Positions 1 to 35,918 of a DNA stretch of 64,000 nucleotides are shown piece by piece. The stretch's first letter is position 1. Each line of letters opens with the position of its first letter. A model generated the notes under the pieces. The model saw only the letters and a program-made list of their open reading frames with translations. It was not told the origin of the DNA and did no database searches. Source of the DNA: Escherichia coli (GTDB lineage: Bacteria; Pseudomonadota; Gammaproteobacteria; Enterobacterales; Enterobacteriaceae); NCBI RefSeq assembly GCF_001677475.2, contig NZ_CP015229.1; one strand, written 5' to 3'. The translations under genes were made by a program, and so were the position numbers.

Positions 1-802
1 CAAAGCGACGGCATTGACTGAAGCAGTTAATCGCCAGCTGCACCCTAAACCGGAAGATGAATCTCGCGTCAGTGCCTCATTACGTTCAGCAATTCAAAAA
101 TCCGGCATGGTATTGCTTGATGATTTTGGCGACATTGTACTGAAGACAGCGGATTTATGTTCTGCCAAAGATGACTGTGTGCGACTGAAAAATGCGCTGG
201 TCAATCTCGGCAACAGTAAAGACTGGGACGCGCTGGTAAAACGCGCCAACGCCGGGAAGCTCGATGGCGTGAATGTGTTATTACGCCCGGTGAGTGCGGA
301 ATCGCTGGATAACCTGGTGGCAACCTCCACCGCGCCGTTTATCACGCATGAAACGGCGCGAGCGGCACAATCACTAAACAGTCCGGCCCCCGGCGGATTC
401 CTGATTGTCAGCGACGAAGGCAGCGATTTTGTTGATCAGCCCTGGCCTTCGGCATCACTTTACGACTACCCGCCGCAAGAACAGTGGAACGCTTTCCAGA
501 AACTGGCACAAATGCTGATGCATACGCCGTTTAACGCCGAGGGTATCGTCACAAAAATCTTCACTGACGCCAATGGTACGCAGCATATAGGCCTTCATCC
601 GATCCCGGATCGTTCCGGCCTGTGGCGCTATCTCAGCACCACTCTGCTGCTACTGACGATGCTGAGTAGCGCCATTTATAATGGCGTACAGGCCTGGCGG
701 CGTTACCAGCGTCATCGCACTCGCATGATGAAGATTCAGGCCTATTATGAAAGCTGCCTGAACCCGCAACTGATCACACCTTCAGAAAGCCTTATCGAAT
801 AA
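1..802 (+). CDS. igaA: IgaA (YrfF) inner-membrane protein, C-terminal part; 5' end lies upstream of the window
   Basis: Open frame runs in from window start to stop at 802 (track ORF 14..802); hydrophobic helix near C-terminus; position upstream of yrfG-hslRO matches K-12 gene order. Confidence 0.75.
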   Translation, partial: KATALTEAVNRQLHPKPEDESRVSASLRSAIQKSGMVLLDDFGDIVLKTADLCSAKDDCVRLKNALVNLGNSKDWDALVKRANAGKLDGVNVLLRPVSAESLDNLVATSTAPFITHETARAAQSLNSPAPGGFLIVSDEGSDFVDQPWPSASLYDYPPQEQWNAFQKLAQMLMHTPFNAEGIVTKIFTDANGTQHIGLHPIPDRSGLWRYLSTTLLLLTMLSSAIYNGVQAWRRYQRHRTRMMKIQAYYESCLNPQLITPSESLIE

Positions 803-866
803 CACGTTTGCGCGGCAGGTTATGCTACCCTGTCGCGCAAATTGCTTCACTCTGGAGATTTCCCTC

Positions 867-1535
867 ATGCATATCAACATTGCCTGGCAGGACGTAGATA
901 CCGTACTGCTGGATATGGACGGCACGTTGCTCGACCTCGCCTTCGATAACTATTTCTGGCAAAAGCTGGTACCTGAAACATGGGGCGCGAAAAACGGGGT
1001 TACGCCACAGGAAGCGATGGAATATATGCGCCAGCAATATCACGACGTACAGCATACGCTAAACTGGTACTGTCTTGATTACTGGAGTGAGCAACTGGGT
1101 CTGGATATCTGTGCGATGACCACCGAGATGGGACCGCGCGCCGTACTGCGTGAAGATACCATTCCGTTTCTTGAGGCACTGAAAGCCAGCGGTAAGCAGC
1201 GAATTTTGCTCACCAATGCGCATCCACACAACCTGGCGGTAAAACTTGAGCATACCGGTCTGGACGCACACCTTGATTTATTACTTTCCACCCACACATT
1301 TGGTTATCCGAAAGAGGATCAGCGGTTATGGCATGCGGTGGCCGAAGCTACGGGTCTGAAAGCTGAAAGAACGCTGTTTATTGATGACAGCGAAGCGATT
1401 CTCGATGCTGCCGCGCAATTTGGTATTCGTTACTGCCTCGGCGTGACTAATCCTGACTCCGGGATTGCCGAGAAACAGTATCAACGCCATCCGTCACTGA
1501 ATGACTACCGCCGCCTGATCCCCTCGCTAATGTGA
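867..1535 (+). CDS. yrfG: HAD-family nucleotidase YrfG
   Basis: Track ORF 822..1535; HAD motif LLDMDGTLLD at the ATG at 867 (MHINIAWQDV); 222 aa from that start. Confidence 0.9.
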   Translation: MHINIAWQDVDTVLLDMDGTLLDLAFDNYFWQKLVPETWGAKNGVTPQEAMEYMRQQYHDVQHTLNWYCLDYWSEQLGLDICAMTTEMGPRAVLREDTIPFLEALKASGKQRILLTNAHPHNLAVKLEHTGLDAHLDLLLSTHTFGYPKEDQRLWHAVAEATGLKAERTLFIDDSEAILDAAAQFGIRYCLGVTNPDSGIAEKQYQRHPSLNDYRRLIPSLM

Positions 1536-1965: not shown

Positions 1966-2850
1966 ATGATTATGCCGCAACATGACCAATTACATCGCTA
2001 TCTGTTTGAAAACTTTGCCGTTCGCGGCGAACTGGTAACCGTTTCGGAAACCCTGCAACAGATCCTTGAGAATCACGATTATCCGCAGCCCGTTAAAAAC
2101 GTGCTGGCAGAACTGCTGGTTGCGACCAGCCTGTTAACCGCTACGTTGAAGTTTGATGGTGATATCACTGTACAGCTGCAAGGCGACGGTCCGATGAATC
2201 TGGCGGTTATTAACGGTAACAACAACCAGCAGATGCGCGGTGTGGCGCGCGTGCAGGGCGAAATTCCAGAAAATGCCGACCTGAAAACGCTGGTCGGCAA
2301 TGGTTACGTGGTGATCACCATTACCCCGAGCGAAGGCGAACGCTATCAGGGCGTGGTTGGTCTGGAAGGTGATACCCTGGCGGCCTGCCTGGAAGATTAC
2401 TTTATGCGTTCTGAACAGCTGCCGACGCGCCTGTTTATTCGCACCGGCGACGTAGACGGCAAACCGGCTGCAGGCGGTATGTTGTTGCAGGTAATGCCTG
2501 CGCAAAATGCCCAGCAGGACGACTTTGACCACCTGGCAACGCTAACCGAAACCATCAAAACCGAAGAACTGCTGACCTTACCGGCAAACGAAGTGTTGTG
2601 GCGTTTGTATCACGAAGAAGAGGTGACGGTTTACGATCCGCAGGATGTGGAGTTCAAATGCACCTGCTCGCGTGAACGTTGCGCCGATGCGCTGAAAACG
2701 CTGCCTGATGAAGAAGTCGATAGCATCCTGGCGGAAGATGGCGAAATTGACATGCATTGTGATTACTGCGGTAACCACTATCTGTTCAATGCGATGGATA
2801 TTGCTGAAATCCGCAACAACGCGTCTCCGGCAGATCCGCAAGTTCATTAA
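1966..2850 (+). CDS. hslO: Redox-regulated chaperone Hsp33
   Basis: 294-aa ORF; C-terminal zinc centre CTCSRERC ... CDYCGNHY places Cys at 232/234/265/268 when counted from MIMPQ. Confidence 0.95.
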
Positions 2851-2978
2851 TGAGTATGTCCGGCAGAGAGGGCTCTGCCGGATTTTACGACGTAATGGCC
2901 TGATGCGCTTACCAGGCCTATGAAATAAATCGCAAGTTATTTTGGTCAGATACAGCGTCGTATCCGATAAAAGCATTG

Positions 2979-4703
2979 TCACTTGCTTAAGTTTATTTCC
3001 AGCGTTTCACCATCTACCGCCAGATCGCGCCACGCTTTCGGCCTCGTCCCCAGCTTTCCATCCTTCGCAGCTGTGAGTAATTTTTCTTTCGTTATTTTGC
3101 GCGGAAGTAAACTCATATCAAGCGCGTCCCATTCTTTTCTGGCTGAGTCAAAGCCATAGACAATGACTCTGTCATCATTAAAAGCAAACAGGATCCGCTC
3201 CGCCTGACCATCACTATTCAGATCTTGCTCGACCAGTACGCAGGCGTCTTTTTCAATACAGGTCATCACGTTATAGCGATCCTGGATTAAGGCCGACCAG
3301 AATGTCGCATCCGGTTTACCAGAGCCTGGGGCAATTAACACATTTTCGGCTAATACTTTTTCCGATACCTGTTCCTGAAGATGTTGCTCTCCATCTAACG
3401 CCATCAGCAGATCCCGCGCGCGTTTCGGGTCTTTCATATACTCGGCATCGCTTTTCAGCGACTCAAGCGCCGCACGTCCATAGCGACCGCTCTGTTCGAG
3501 CATATAGAGACTTACCTGGTCTGGCGTGTTTTTGCCGCTCTGATAACGTGCCATATGACTGTTCACGCTAATACGCATACTGTCCAGCACCGGCGAATTA
3601 AGAAGCACCAGTATCACCAACACCAATAACGAAACCGCAAGGTTCACTTTGCCCTGAAGAACAAGGGGGTTTTGCCCTTTACGCCAGACGATACTGACAA
3701 AATACCCCAGCGACCATACCAGTAACACCAGCACCGCCAACGCGCCCTGCAAGCGGTCGACAGTCCAGCCGTACTGAGCGACCCGCAGCCATAACGCCCA
3801 GGCGGCGACGAACACATACAGCGGAGCAGCCAGCAGAGCGGTTTTAATCAGGCAACGCAACGGCCCTGTCCAGGGAAGTGACGCTTTTTGCGGATCGCGG
3901 ACAATAGCCATTAAGATCAATTGCAAAAATGCCAGCGTCAACAGCAACCCAGCGGCGGAGATGTGGCGAGAAATCGCGCTCAGGCCCGTAAACGGCAGGG
4001 TGATAATAAACATCAGGGTTAGCAATGATACTAACGGCAGCAACCCCGTGGCGATTAGCGTGAACAACTTTTGAATAGAGTCGATTAAACGTGACTGTGT
4101 ACGCGCGAGGATCACCGCCAGTGCGGTAACCAGACCTAATGTAAGATACATAAACCAGTCGGTTGCAAAAAAGAGCGTATTGAAAAACGTGATGCCAACA
4201 AGTTTAAACAACTCGCCCCACAGTAAAAGTACCAGCCATGTCAGGCCATTGGCGAGAAAAATCACCAGTAATATAAGTACGTTATGCCATACTGACTGGT
4301 AAAAATAGCGATAGCGGCTACTGTCATTGCGGATGCGAAGGCTTTGTTGTATCCACGGTAGCAACAACATTGCCATCAGCAGCAGATAGCAACCAAAATC
4401 CCAAAGCGCCTTTTCTGCTCTCCAGGGGTTCATGCCATCAGTTTGCCACTTCAGCCAACCGCTCATCCCTGTCGTGGCAATAAACACCAGCACCAGCCAT
4501 CCCCAAAGGCGCTTCTGTTTAAAGGAGATCACGGAGAAGAGTAAAACGGATGAAAACGCGACGGTCGCAGGCACGCCATAAACAATCCAACTGAGATTTT
4601 TTCCGGCAAGCCAGGCGATCAGCAAGTAGCAAACCAGCCCCTGAAGTAATCCGGTAGCAATCATCCCCCAGCGTGTTGCTGGTGAAAGTTCAACGTTATC
4701 CAT
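2979..4703 (-). CDS. yhgE: YhgE, polytopic inner-membrane protein of unknown function
   Basis: 574-aa ORF, many hydrophobic helices, position between hslO and pck. Confidence 0.85.
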
Positions 4704-5081
4704 GTTGGTTATCCAGAATCAAAAGGTGGGTTAATTATCGCATCCGGGCAGTAGTATTTTGCTTTTTTCAGAAAATAATCAAAAAAAGTTAGCGTGGTGA
4801 ATCGATACTTTACCGATTGAATTTGCATCAATTTCATTCAGGAATGCGATTCCACTCACAATATTCCCGCCATATAAACCAAGATTTAACCTTTTGAGAA
4901 CATTTTCCACACCTAAAATGCTATTTCTGCGATAATAGCAACCGTTTCGTGACAGGAATCACGGAGTTTTTTGTCAAATATGAATTTCTCCAGATACGTA
5001 AATCTATGAGCCTTGTCGCGGTTAACACCCCCAAAAAGACTTTACTATTCAGGCAATACATATTGGCTAAGGAGCAGTGAA

Positions 5082-28231: not shown

Positions 28232-29251
<1,020 letters not shown>

Positions 29252-30478
29252 TTATCCTTTTACGCACACCACCTGACGCAGGGTGTAGATAACTTCCACC
29301 AGATCGCTTTGTGCCGCCATCACCGCATCAATATCTTTATACGCCATCGGGATTTCGTCGATCACTTCGGCATCTTTACGGCATTCCACATGCGCGGTGG
29401 CACGAATTTGATCTTCCACGCTGAACAGTTTTTTCGCTTTAGTACGGCTCATAACCCGCCCGGCACCGTGGCTGCACGAACAGAACGACTCTTCATTTCC
29501 CAGCCCACGGACGATAAAGCTTTTCGCTCCCATCGACCCTGGAATAATTCCATATTGACCAGCACGCGCAGACACCGCGCCTTTACGCGTCACGTAGATC
29601 TCTTCACCAAAGTGCTGTTCTTTTTGCACATAGTTGTGGTGACAGCTGATCTCTTCCATCGCCAGCGTTTGTGGCTGTCTGACCGTTTTCTGCGTAATGC
29701 TCTGCAACGCCGTAACCACGTTTTCCATCATCGCATCACGGTTAAGGCTGGCAAAAAGCTGCGCCCAGGCCACAGCTTTCAGGTAATCATCAAAGTATTC
29801 CGTGCCTTCCATAAAGTACGCCAGATCACGCGACGGCAACGTCTCAAGCGTTTCCTGCATCTCTTTTTGCGCCAGATCGATAAAGTAAGTCCCGATGGCG
29901 TTACCAATTCCGCGTGAACCGGAGTGCAACATAATCCACACCTGGTCCGACTCATCAAGGCAGATTTCAATAAAGTGGTTACCCGTTCCCAGCGTTCCCA
30001 GGTGTTTATAGTTGTTAGTGTTAAGGAAACGCGGATATTTTTGCGTTAACCACTGATAACCGGCTTCAAGCTCAGCCCATTTCGCATCGACGTTAACAGG
30101 CGGGTTTTCCCATGCGCCTTTATCACGTTTACAACGCCCGGTAGTACGCCCGTGCGGCACGGCAGTTTCAATGGCCTGACGCAGTTCCGCCAGGTTTTCC
30201 GGCAGATCTGCCGCCGTTAACGCGGTACGCAGTGCGTTCATTCCACAACCGATATCCACGCCCACCGCTGCAGGAATAATCGCCCCTTTGGTCGGGATCA
30301 CGCTACCAATGGTGGAACCTTTACCCAGGTGCACGTCAGGCATTACCGCAATATGTTTGAAAATAAACGGCATCTTCGCCGTATTAATAAGTTGCTGACG
30401 CGCATCGGCTTCTACCGGCACGCCTTTGGTCCACATTTTTACCGGGGCATTTTCAGTGGTCAGTAATTCGTAATTCAT
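29252..30478 (-). CDS. rtcB: RNA-splicing ligase RtcB
   Basis: 408-aa ORF; RtcB motifs (GTGNHFIEI, HNYV); sigma54 promoter upstream. Confidence 0.95.
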   Translation of the reverse strand: MNYELLTTENAPVKMWTKGVPVEADARQQLINTAKMPFIFKHIAVMPDVHLGKGSTIGSVIPTKGAIIPAAVGVDIGCGMNALRTALTAADLPENLAELRQAIETAVPHGRTTGRCKRDKGAWENPPVNVDAKWAELEAGYQWLTQKYPRFLNTNNYKHLGTLGTGNHFIEICLDESDQVWIMLHSGSRGIGNAIGTYFIDLAQKEMQETLETLPSRDLAYFMEGTEYFDDYLKAVAWAQLFASLNRDAMMENVVTALQSITQKTVRQPQTLAMEEISCHHNYVQKEQHFGEEIYVTRKGAVSARAGQYGIIPGSMGAKSFIVRGLGNEESFCSCSHGAGRVMSRTKAKKLFSVEDQIRATAHVECRKDAEVIDEIPMAYKDIDAVMAAQSDLVEVIYTLRQVVCVKG

Positions 30479-30515
30479 TTTGTTTTTCTCTTTTCATTGT
30501 TTGCTGTCCTGATAA

Positions 30516-30533
30516 TTGCAACCGTCGTGCCAG
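30516..30533 (-). promoter_or_regulatory. Sigma54 (-24/-12) promoter of rtcBA
   Basis: Minus strand reads CTGGCACgacggTTGCA, matching TGGCAC-N5-TTGCA, about 38 bp upstream of rtcB ATG and divergent from rtcR. Confidence 0.85.
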
Positions 30534-30666
30534 AAAATTAAATAAGCAGATTAATTTTTTTATTCATTGTTTTAAAAAAGATTATATCTTTACGTCCGTA
30601 ACCGGAGATTTCCCGCAAAGCCGATTTACCGATAATGAAATATCGTCTTTTATAAGGATATCTAAG

Positions 30667-32265
30667 ATGCGTAAAACAGTGGCTTTTGGCTTTGTCGGTA
30701 CCGTACTGGATTATGCCGGACGCGGCAGTCAGCGCTGGTCAAAATGGCGTCCGACACTCTGTTTATGCCAGCAAGAATCGTTGGTCATCGATCGACTGGA
30801 ATTATTGCACGACGCCCGCTCGCGCTCGCTATTTGAAACGCTTAAACGCGATATCGCCAGCGTTTCGCCAGAAACAGAAGTGCTGAGCGTTGAGATTGAA
30901 CTGCATAACCCGTGGGATTTCGAAGAGGTTTACGCCTGCCTGCATGATTTCGCCCGTGGTTACGAGTTTCAGCCAGAAAAAGAAGACTATTTAATTCACA
31001 TCACCACCGGCACCCACGTCGCGCAGATTTGCTGGTTTCTGCTGGCGGAAGCGCGTTACCTGCCCGCCCGGTTGATACAATCTTCACCTCCGCGCAAAAA
31101 AGAACAGCCGCGCGGCGCAGGTGAAGTGACGATTATCGATCTCGATTTAAGCCGTTATAACGCCATCGCCAGCCGCTTTGCCGAGGAACGCCAGCAAACG
31201 CTTGATTTTCTTAAGTCCGGCATTGCCACGCGTAACCCCCTCTTCAACCGCATGATTGAGCAGATTGAAAAAGTGGCGATTAAATCCCGCGCACCGATCC
31301 TGCTTAACGGCCCGACCGGCGCGGGTAAGTCGTTTCTGGCACGACGAATTTTCGAATTAAAACAGGCGCGGCATCAGTTTAGCGGCGCGTTTGTGGAAGT
31401 GAACTGCGCCACCTTGCGTGGCGATACCGCCATGTCGACGCTGTTTGGTCATGTAAAAGGCGCGTTTACCGGGGCGCGGGAATCTCGTGAAGGTTTATTA
31501 CGTAGCGCCAACGGCGGAATGTTGTTTCTTGATGAGATTGGCGAACTGGGCGCAGACGAACAGGCAATGCTGCTAAAAGCCATTGAAGAGAAAACCTTTT
31601 ACCCATTTGGCAGCGATCGCCAGGTGAACAGTGATTTTCAGCTTATCGCCGGAACGGTGCGCGATTTGCGCCAGCTGGTTGCCGAAGGCAAATTTCGCGA
31701 AGATCTGTACGCGCGGATCAATCTCTGGACCTTCACCCTGCCGGGTCTACGCCAGCGCCAGGAAGATATTGAACCGAACCTGGATTATGAAGTGGAGCGC
31801 CACGCCACACTCACTGGTGACAGCGTGCGTTTTAACACCGAAGCGCGGCGTGCCTGGTTGGCTTTTGCGACCTCTCCCCAGGCGACATGGCGCGGTAACT
31901 TTCGCGAACTTTCCGCCAGCGTCACGCGGATGGCCACCTTTGCCACTAGCGGACGCATCACTCTGGCCGTGGTTGAAGATGAGATAAACCGTCTGCGCTA
32001 TAACTGGCAGGAGAGCCGCCCCTCCGCGCTTACGACTTTGCTGGGCGCAGAGGCAGAAAACATCGATCTCTTCGACCGTATGCAACTGGAATACGTTATC
32101 GCTATCTGCCGCCAGGCAAAGTCGCTTTCCGCAGCCGGACGCCAGCTTTTTGACGTTTCGCGCCAGGGCAAAGCCAGCGTCAATGACGCGGATCGGCTAC
32201 GCAAATACCTGGCGCGTTTTGGTCTGACGTGGGAAGCCGTGCAGGATCAGCACAGCTCCAGTTGA
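30667..32265 (+). CDS. rtcR: RtcR, sigma54-dependent activator of rtcBA
   Basis: 532-aa ORF; AAA+ sigma54-activator motifs GPTGAGKS and GAFTGA; divergent from rtcB. Confidence 0.95.
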
Positions 32266-33005
32266 ATATGGTGGTCCGTCAGCACCTGCATCACGCTTAC
32301 TGGCGGCGGGGCGTCGGTGTAGACGGCATCTACCATGCTGATGCTACCCATATTGACCATCGCGTTACGGCTAAATTTCGAGTGATCGACAACCAGCATA
32401 ACGTGGCGCGAGTTCTCAATAATGGCGCGTTTGGTGCGAACTTCGTGGTAATCGAACTCCAGCAGCGAGCCGTCGCTATCGATGCCGCTGATCCCCAGAA
32501 TACCGAAATCAAGGCGGAACTGGGAGATAAAATCGAGCGTCGCTTCGCCTATGATCCCACCATCGCGGCTACGTAATTCGCCACCGGCGAGAATAATACG
32601 AAAATCTTCTTTTACCATCAACGTGTTAGCGACGTTGAGATTGTTGGTGACAATGCGCAAATTGCTGTGATTAAGCAGCGCGTGCGCCACCGCTTCCGGG
32701 GTGGTGCCGATATCGATAAACAGCGTCGAGCCGTTGGGGATTTGCTCCGCCACTTTGCGGGCAATACGCTCTTTTTCTTCGGTCTGGGTGGCTTTGCGAT
32801 CGTGCCACGGCGTGTTAACCGAACTGGAAGGTAGCGCCGCGCCGCCATGATGGCGCAGGATCAGGTTTTGCTCCGCCAGCTCGTTGAGGTCGCGACGAAT
32901 AGTCTGCGGGCTGACGGAGAAGTGCTCCACCAGTTCCTCGGTACTGACATAACCCTGCTGTTTAACCAGTTCGATAATACCGTTGTGACGTTGTGTTTGT
33001 TTCAT
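32247..33005 (-). CDS. glpR: GlpR, DeoR-family repressor of the glp regulon
   Basis: 252-aa ORF; N-terminal DeoR HTH; 3' end overlaps the rtcR 3' end by 19 nt. Confidence 0.95.
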   Translation of the reverse strand: MKQTQRHNGIIELVKQQGYVSTEELVEHFSVSPQTIRRDLNELAEQNLILRHHGGAALPSSSVNTPWHDRKATQTEEKERIARKVAEQIPNGSTLFIDIGTTPEAVAHALLNHSNLRIVTNNLNVANTLMVKEDFRIILAGGELRSRDGGIIGEATLDFISQFRLDFGILGISGIDSDGSLLEFDYHEVRTKRAIIENSRHVMLVVDHSKFSRNAMVNMGSISMVDAVYTDAPPPVSVMQVLTDHHIQLELC

Positions 33006-33021
33006 TTATAAATCCCTGGAA

Positions 33022-33864
<843 letters not shown>

Positions 33865-33896
33865 TTATTCCACACAAAAGGGGACAGTATAAAGCG

Positions 33897-34301
<405 letters not shown>

Positions 34302-34361
34302 TTATACATATCACTCTAAAATGTTTTTTCAATGTTACCCAAAGCGCGATTCTTTGCTAAT

Positions 34362-34379
34362 ATGTTCGATAACGAACAT
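34362..34379. promoter_or_regulatory. GlpR operator palindrome in the glpE/glpD divergent control region
   Basis: ATGTTCGATAACGAACAT, perfect inverted repeat, 34 bp upstream of glpD ATG. Confidence 0.7.
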
Positions 34380-34412
34380 TTATGAGCTTTAACGAAAGTG
34401 AATGAGGGCAGC

Positions 34413-35918
34413 ATGGAAACCAAAGATCTGATTGTGATAGGTGGCGGCATCAATGGTGCTGGTATCGCGGCAGACGCCGCTGGACGCGGTTTATCCGTGC
34501 TGATGCTGGAGGCGCAGGATCTCGCTTGTGCGACCTCTTCCGCCAGTTCAAAACTCATTCACGGTGGCCTGCGCTACCTTGAGCACTATGAATTCCGCCT
34601 GGTCAGCGAGGCGCTGGCTGAACGTGAAGTGCTACTGAAAATGGCCCCGCATATCGCCTTCCCGATGCGTTTTCGCCTGCCGCATCGTCCGCATCTGCGC
34701 CCGGCGTGGATGATTCGGATTGGTCTGTTTATGTACGATCATCTGGGTAAACGCACCAGCCTGCCGGGATCAACCGGTTTGCGTTTTGGCGCAAATTCAG
34801 TGTTAAAACCGGAAATTAAGCGCGGATTCGAATATTCCGACTGTTGGGTAGACGACGCCCGTCTGGTACTCGCCAACGCCCAGATGGTGGTGCGTAAAGG
34901 CGGTGAAGTGCTTACCCGGACTCGTGCCACTTCTGCTCGCCGCGAAAACGGCCTGTGGATTGTGGAAGCGGAAGATATCGATACCGGCAAAAAATTCACC
35001 TGGCAGGCGCGCGGCCTGGTTAATGCTACCGGCCCGTGGGTGAAACAGTTCTTCGACGACGGGATGCATCTGCCTTCGCCTTATGGCATTCGCCTGATCA
35101 AAGGCAGCCATATTGTGGTGCCGCGTGTGCATACCCAGAAGCAAGCCTACATTCTGCAAAACGAAGATAAACGTATTGTGTTCGTGATCCCGTGGATGGA
35201 CGAGTTTTCCATCATCGGCACCACCGATGTGGAATACAAAGGCGATCCAAAAGCAGTGAAGATTGAAGAGAGTGAAATCAATTACCTGCTGAAAGTGTAT
35301 AACGCGCACTTTAAAAAACAGTTAAGCCGGGACGATATCGTCTGGACCTACTCCGGCGTGCGCCCGCTGTGTGATGATGAGTCCGATTCGCCGCAGGCTA
35401 TCACTCGTGATTACACCCTTGATATCCATGATGAAAACGGCAAAGCCCCGCTGCTGTCGGTATTCGGCGGTAAGCTGACCACCTACCGCAAACTGGCGGA
35501 ACACGCGCTGGAAAAACTGACGCCATATTATCAGGGCATTGGTCCGGCGTGGACGAAAGAGAGCGTGCTGCCGGGCGGTGCCATTGAAGGCGACCGTGAC
35601 GATTACGCCGCGCGTCTGCGCCGCCGTTACCCATTCCTGACCGAATCGCTGGCACGTCATTACGCACGCACTTACGGCAGCAACAGCGAGCTGTTGCTCG
35701 GCAATGCAGGGGCGATAAGCGACCTCGGGGAGGATTTCGGTCATGAGTTCTACGAAGCGGAGCTGAAATACCTGGTGGATCACGAATGGGTCCGCCGCGC
35801 CGACGATGCCCTGTGGCGTCGCACAAAACAAGGAATGTGGCTGAATGCGGAACAACAATCTCATGTGAGTCAGTGGCTGGTGGAGTATACGCAGCAGAAG
35901 TTGTCGCTGGCGTCGTAA
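34413..35918 (+). CDS. glpD: Aerobic glycerol-3-phosphate dehydrogenase
   Basis: Track ORF 34398..35918; start at ATG 34413 (METKDLIVIGGGINGAGIA, FAD fold); 501 aa. Confidence 0.96.
   Translation: METKDLIVIGGGINGAGIAADAAGRGLSVLMLEAQDLACATSSASSKLIHGGLRYLEHYEFRLVSEALAEREVLLKMAPHIAFPMRFRLPHRPHLRPAWMIRIGLFMYDHLGKRTSLPGSTGLRFGANSVLKPEIKRGFEYSDCWVDDARLVLANAQMVVRKGGEVLTRTRATSARRENGLWIVEAEDIDTGKKFTWQARGLVNATGPWVKQFFDDGMHLPSPYGIRLIKGSHIVVPRVHTQKQAYILQNEDKRIVFVIPWMDEFSIIGTTDVEYKGDPKAVKIEESEINYLLKVYNAHFKKQLSRDDIVWTYSGVRPLCDDESDSPQAITRDYTLDIHDENGKAPLLSVFGGKLTTYRKLAEHALEKLTPYYQGIGPAWTKESVLPGGAIEGDRDDYAARLRRRYPFLTESLARHYARTYGSNSELLLGNAGAISDLGEDFGHEFYEAELKYLVDHEWVRRADDALWRRTKQGMWLNAEQQSHVSQWLVEYTQQKLSLAS

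Follow-up and report, generated by a model that had tools for sequence, protein, structure and literature searches.

The 19-nt convergent overlap of rtcR and glpR in Escherichia coli, an ordinary coding overlap whose length appears to follow the glpR stop codon

Protein-coding genes that overlap tail to tail form a well-described class. Lillo & Krakauer (2007; PMC2174442) listed 58 convergent overlaps in E. coli, gave mutation of a stop codon as their origin, and found the 4-nt sequences CTAA, TTAA, CTAG and TTAG to be common among them. Among well-characterised overlaps about 7% are convergent, and in no other orientation do overlaps of more than 60 bp include any that are apparently genuine (Pallejà et al., 2008; PMC2478687). 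At the level of RNA, 276 of 370 convergent E. coli operons have overlapping 3' transcripts, the shared part averaging 286 nt (Conway et al., 2014; PMC4161252). A further comparison is provided by excludons and other cis-antisense pairs, in which genes on opposite strands give transcripts that are partly complementary.

The window analysed here, a 64,000-nucleotide stretch of E. coli DNA, contains the convergent genes rtcR and glpR, which share their last 19 nt. The pair resembles the described convergent overlaps in being formed by real genes with common 3' ends, in having the phase of the 4-nt type, in reaching its long form by stop loss, in being short (<60 nt) and in being conserved among related species; nothing essential differs, and rtcR/glpR is an ordinary, known convergent overlap. 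The one detail that stands out is that a silent exchange of one glpR stop for another (TAA to TGA) appears to have removed the stop of rtcR. As in convergent operons (PMC4161252, PMC7815308), read-through from glpR extends a few hundred nucleotides (∼334 nt, against the mean of 286 nt) and rises with bicyclomycin, although here one strand, that of glpR, alone has supporting data; moreover, the overlap of the two coding sequences leaves no place between the genes for a shared terminator. The likeness to excludons stops at opposite-strand genes whose transcripts would be partly complementary: no reciprocal expression, RNase III processing or phenotype has been reported for rtcR/glpR, and the arrangement has been repeatedly lost with glpR unchanged. 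Taken together, we consider a genuine, passive convergent overlap of a well-known kind, reaching 19 nt by way of a glpR TGA stop, to be the probable explanation (roughly 85%).

The features of the locus, in window coordinates, are as follows.

30667..32265, plus strand: rtcR coding sequence, 532 aa, sigma-54 activator of rtcBA (ORF list, NCBIfam, Pfam)
32247..33005, minus strand: glpR coding sequence, 252 aa, intact in the window, DeoR-family glycerol-3-phosphate repressor (ORF list, NCBIfam, Pfam)
32247..32265, both strands: tail-to-tail coding overlap of rtcR and glpR, 19 nt, stop codons included
32263..32265, plus strand: rtcR stop codon TGA, opposite the glpR codons AT[T CA]A (Ile-Gln)
32247..32249, minus strand: glpR stop codon TGA, whose complement TCA spans the rtcR codons GA[T CA]G, with no rtcR stop there
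32248..32262, plus strand: five extra rtcR codons CAG CAC AGC TCC AGT (QHSSS), antisense to glpR QLELC
31913..32246, minus strand: putative 3' untranslated extension of glpEGR, antisense to the end of rtcR and Rho-terminated; far end mapped from K-12 and coarse

Each member of the pair is a true gene that encodes a protein, and the two lie on opposite strands. Against the NCBIfam equivalog NF038308 (cut-off 650) RtcR reaches 848.8 bits, with residues 1–527 covered; the GlpR score against NF008154 is 549.9 bits (cut-off 331), over 252 of 252 profile positions. Pfam assigns RtcR and Sigma54_activat domains to the former and HTH_DeoR and DeoRC domains to the latter, and the neighbouring genes rtcB, glpG, glpE and glpD follow E. 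coli gene order. The glpR gene of MG1655 is a pseudogene in which a 1-nt deletion at nt 151 halts translation at codon 106 (K-12 copy compared, L001:4849-5606); that of the window is intact.

An earlier note on this DNA had placed the rtcR end at 32265 and the glpR end at 32247, with 19 nt in common, and ORF coordinates and sequence agree with it exactly. On the plus strand rtcR ends CAG GAT CAG CAC AGC TCC AGT TGA, and on the minus strand glpR ends CAA CTG GAG CTG TGC TGA. By their coordinates, the two frames have their third codon positions at the same nucleotides (both at coordinate mod 3 = 0), a phase shared with the frequent 4-nt stop/stop overlaps. The overlap is set by the stop codons alone and not by the choice of start, so it is not an artefact of annotation; a revised start or stop, which the earlier note had named as its own refutation, finds no place here, as the stops are read directly from the sequence and RefSeq gives the same 19 nt. 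When the antisense of glpR is read in the rtcR frame, eight stops occur in 252 codons, so a run of five codons beyond the glpR stop is unremarkable.

The 19-nt overlap is already known, being present in the reference annotation. RefSeq places rtcR of K-12 MG1655 at 3558268..3559866 and glpR at 3559848..3560605, which is the same 19-nt overlap, and it is likewise annotated in E. coli E2863. A 701-nt query across the junction found matches in 5424 of 5426 complete E. coli genomes, and four diverse Escherichia alleles, one of them a divergent ST131 allele, do not differ in these 19 nt. Beyond K-12 and E2863, the same form is found in E. whittamii, E. albertii, K. oxytoca and K. spallanzanii. Across these genomes the overlap is conserved and not a one-off error. 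Some overlap is present at all the rtcR-bearing loci examined, and a spacer at none of them, a pattern that selection for tight convergence would also be expected to give.

The origin of the different overlap lengths was examined by scanning for GlpR relatives in one genome per species and scoring each locus. GlpR is 252 aa long in 78 of 80 species, and the same 78 end in QLELC followed by the stop. The stop codon itself is variable: TGA in 40, TAA in 36 and TAG in four of the 80 species. rtcR adjoins glpR in some lineages only, and the junction varies among them.

Escherichia spp., K. oxytoca, K. spallanzanii and the window: 19 nt; glpR stop TGA; RtcR ending QHSSS, 532 aa
Superficieibacter electus (L035): 4 nt; glpR stop TAG; rtcR TAA directly opposite the glpR stop
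Salmonella (L084, cluster P0028, 2038 members): 4 nt; glpR stop TAA; RtcR ending LQN, 527 aa
Intestinirhabdus alba (L030): 35 nt; glpR stop TGA; RtcR in another frame, 535 aa
Salmonella (L085, cluster P0031): 38 nt; glpR stop TGA; RtcR in another frame, 536 aa

All 19-nt loci (the window, L004, L005, L006, L041 and L051) carry glpR TGA. A glpR stop of TAA or TAG supplies, through its complement, an in-frame rtcR TAA, and the result is a 4-nt overlap and an RtcR of 527 aa; with a glpR stop of TGA, rtcR reads CAG instead, the first of five added codons before the next TGA in frame, and 19 nt are shared. The Salmonella locus with the 4-nt overlap (L084; genes called at 2501-4084 and 4081-4839) illustrates the difference. 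Its junction reads AAT TAA CAC AGC TCC AGT TGA where the window has GAT CAG CAC AGC TCC AGT TGA, and its glpR ends TGT TAA where that of the window ends TGC TGA. Changing the glpR stop from TAA to TGA alone turns the rtcR TAA into CAA (Gln); the CAG of the window also reflects a silent Cys change, TGT to TGC. In I. alba and the second Salmonella locus the junction is about 7 nt shorter, which puts rtcR in a different frame and lengthens the overlaps to 35 and 38 nt. Judged from these comparisons, the overlap probably arose by loss or shift of a stop codon and 3' extension of RtcR relative to its orthologues, and its length is a by-product of the stop codon that glpR has. The GlpR C-terminus is the constrained partner, with a glpR stop codon that drifts freely.

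The five residues that the extension adds to RtcR lie outside the conserved protein, since the family profile covers residues 1–527. RtcR is conserved to about residue 527 in Enterobacteriaceae and betaproteobacteria, beyond which the tails, 5–15 residues long, are unrelated. QHSSS is the antisense reading of the GlpR Leu-Glu-Leu-Cys codons, which are equally conserved in species without rtcR. The Salmonella RtcR of cluster P0028 (527 aa) lacks it and betaproteobacterial RtcR tails differ. The tail therefore looks like a passenger, its sequence determined by that of glpR.

The rtc genes themselves are frequently missing. In the species scan they are absent from 71 of 78 scored loci, which includes most sampled Enterobacteriaceae, and within E. 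coli a deletion allele of rtc, counted where its junction matched at ≥80% query coverage, is present in 565 of 5426 complete genomes (∼10%), with glpR kept unchanged. Remnants of the rtcR 3' end were found in K. michiganensis (L053) and in the metagenome-assembled genome UBA5654 (L025). These distributions suggest that rtc has been lost repeatedly with glpR unaffected, and that rtc is dispensable for glpR. In the deletion allele of E. coli strain 131 (L003:2580-3366), rtcB and most of rtcA and rtcR are gone, and the last 399 nt of rtcR (window ∼31867-32265) remain beside an intact glpR. The retained piece ends about 46 nt beyond the published glpR Rho peak described below; it may have been kept as a 3' region for glpR, and coincidence is equally possible.

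Two further arrangements were seen in Salmonella. In L085:1-1092, malT (ending at 76) and rtcA (73..1092) overlap by 4 nt, so that the rtc module is wedged between malT and glpR and overlaps on both sides. In L084:758-2311, a Ro60/TROVE gene lies upstream of rtcB, and rtcR and glpR overlap by 4 nt.

The earlier note had held that the junction leaves no room for a terminator. This is correct to the extent that there is no intergenic space and no terminator-type hairpin at the junction, but it is not a rule, because 21 of the 58 convergent overlaps of E. coli have a predicted intrinsic terminator within the coding sequence of the partner (PMC2174442). No intrinsic terminator was found at or near the rtcR/glpR junction; the scan gave weak hits 169 and 353 nt away, no more numerous than in shuffled sequences. 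A bidirectional intrinsic terminator was rejected for lack of a GC-rich stem-loop with a U-tract near the stops. Also rejected was a 10-bp stem over the glpR stop (32233..32259, minus strand), which is without a U-tract and whose 3' arm differs among Escherichia alleles; its z-score is -2.05, and six of 200 shuffles fold equally well. Folded together, 11 junctions give a weak consensus (-5.69 kcal/mol, with a single compensatory pair), and a search of 30000..34500 against Rfam gave nothing relevant, its sole match being a spurious lncRNA (E = 0.31).

The situation is different in relatives that lack rtc, where glpR converges on malT over a short structured spacer. The median folding energy of the 50 nt past glpR is -18.2 kcal/mol in the 71 rtc-less loci, compared with -6.8 kcal/mol in rtcR-bearing loci and -9.6 kcal/mol in the window, and 46 of the 71 rtc-less loci, against none of the seven rtcR-bearing ones, have a hairpin of 6 bp or more no further than 40 nt from the end of glpR. 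(A strict terminator scan of three rtc-less relatives, which gave one hit, in L073, is superseded by this systematic count.) Many of these spacers carry a GC-rich hairpin directly after the glpR stop, such as ACCGCCTTGCGGCGGTTTTT in L038 and AAAAAAACCGCCAATTACGGCGGTTTTTTT in L073, and some, including these two, look like classic terminators. In the window the hairpin and T-tract are absent, and the coding end of rtcR fills the same position 3' of glpR. A repeated palindrome, CCCTCTCCC-N3-5-GGGAGAGGG, lies 10–60 nt downstream of glpR in numerous genomes of Enterobacter, Lelliottia and Cedecea (L037, L039, L055, L065, L067, L072, L074, L080 and L082 among them), and looks like a REP-type repeat, not a dedicated terminator.

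Published data from K-12 bear on transcription through the junction. Adams et al. (2021, Supplementary file 2; PMC7815308) list a bicyclomycin-sensitive Rho region with its peak at MG1655 3559514 on the minus strand, antisense to rtcR. Coverage upstream and downstream of this position is 154 and 29 without bicyclomycin and 153 and 256 with it (Rho score 8.89, p 2.7e-27, at the coarse resolution of 800-nt scoring windows). The peak lies 334 nt beyond the glpR stop and corresponds to about 31913 in the window; the transfer uses an offset of 3527601, there being no indels between rtcR of K-12 and rtcR of the window. A Rho region inside rtcR on the glpR strand means that glpR transcription does enter rtcR antisense in K-12, and read-through of this kind is typical of convergent E. 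coli operons. As the MG1655 glpR is frameshifted, Rho may load earlier there than where glpR is intact. Past the glpR stop the ratio of C to G starts at 1.30 (first 78 nt) and is 0.76–1.0 over several hundred nt beyond, an indecisive profile that is at best weakly like a C-rich, G-poor loading site. Within MG1655 3559400-3560499 the same lists contain no Term-seq 3' end and no plus-strand Rho region (PMC7815308), and neither rtcR nor glpR is mentioned in the SMRT-Cappable-seq supplements. The claim that each transcript runs into the partner gene is thus borne out for the glpR strand, by K-12 Rho data 334 nt inside rtcR, while for the rtcR strand nothing is listed.

The sequence of events that we propose is as follows. 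In K-12 the glpEGR transcript has been shown to run about 330 nt antisense into rtcR until ended by Rho, and it presumably does the same in the window strain; rtcR transcripts probably enter glpR for some distance until Rho or colliding polymerases stop them. The overlap itself probably has no dedicated regulatory role, and may persist not through usefulness but because separating the genes would need a duplication.

The earlier note, taken as a whole, proposed antisense interference between the two genes; glpR transcription does enter rtcR and is limited by Rho, but the interference is speculation for which no supporting evidence was found. Its strongest form would be a cis-antisense device, excludon-like, in which convergence without a spacer couples glycerol regulation to RNA repair and read-through from glpEGR lowers rtcR expression, and vice versa. 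Such a device could draw on glpR-strand transcripts that reach about 334 nt into rtcR restrained by Rho alone, on the lack of an intrinsic terminator between the genes, and on the retention of an overlap in Escherichia, Klebsiella, Salmonella, Intestinirhabdus and Superficieibacter. Yet overlapping 3' transcripts are the norm, seen with no known function at 75% (276/370) of convergent E. coli operons (PMC4161252), and they do not require a coding overlap. The length of the overlap varies (4, 19, 35 or 38 nt), the rtc genes have been lost repeatedly beside an unchanged glpR (71/78 loci; 565/5426 E. coli genomes), on the rtcR strand the published data list no antisense signal inside glpR, and no functional link between the two genes was found in the literature, where none of the works found to mention both discusses the overlap. 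We therefore regard a coupling device as improbable, and a regulatory role of the overlap in any form as conceivable but unsupported, at odds no better than that. Less probable again is a conserved device tuned by Rho, in which an antisense RNA of at least 330 nt covers the rtcR 3' end and RtcR levels shift with Rho activity or with the coupling of translation to transcription, under the very stresses that induce Rtc repair; if it were true, the glycerol regulon would be tied to RNA-damage signalling.

Selection could instead act on the proteins, with a functional QHSSS tail and the 19 nt held by constraint on RtcR and GlpR together. QHSSS is identical in every RtcR of the 19-nt form (Escherichia, K. 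oxytoca, K. spallanzanii and the Enterobacter and Phytobacter proteins P0027 and P0032), and wobble positions that face each other are the most permissive phase for encoding two proteins. The identity is, however, fully fixed by the codons for GlpR QLELC, which are kept equally where rtcR is absent; in addition, the tail is missing from the Salmonella cluster of 2038 members with a 527-aa RtcR, the tails of other lineages are unrelated, and the curated RtcR profile ends at residue 527. A functional tail is thus very unlikely, slightly more so even than the Rho-tuned device. An artefact of annotation or sequencing, with a wrong stop or a frameshift near the gene end, can be set aside almost entirely. 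Frameshifted RtcR variants of 636 aa do exist in databases (P0001, P0008), so errors or mutations occur at this site, but both stops are read straight from the sequence, RtcR and GlpR match equivalog models over their full length, and the same junction recurs in independent assemblies of several genera.

The passive overlap that we favour has practical sides. The locus offers a worked example of how overlaps form, in which a putative silent TAA-to-TGA change in glpR removes the rtcR stop and adds five residues; RtcR tail length across Enterobacteriaceae accordingly tracks the choice of glpR stop. Editing the last codons or the stop of glpR alters RtcR, and deletion of rtcR takes away the downstream region in which glpR transcription terminates. 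The glpR frameshift of MG1655 matters whenever MG1655 transcript data are applied to the locus in the window.

Two minor observations concern the surroundings of the junction. A 115-aa ORF (window 32229-32576, plus strand) lies antisense to the 3' half of glpR; its frame has just two stops in 252 codons, and the 636-aa database variants P0001 and P0008 are frameshift fusions of RtcR to the frame of this ORF, which most probably reflects codon usage and is no gene. Among 5426 complete E. coli genomes, the best identity to window 29000-34500 is 97.4% (K-12), and Escherichia sp. E1V33 reaches 95.6%; with a best match of 97.4%, the lineage of the window seems poorly represented in that set.
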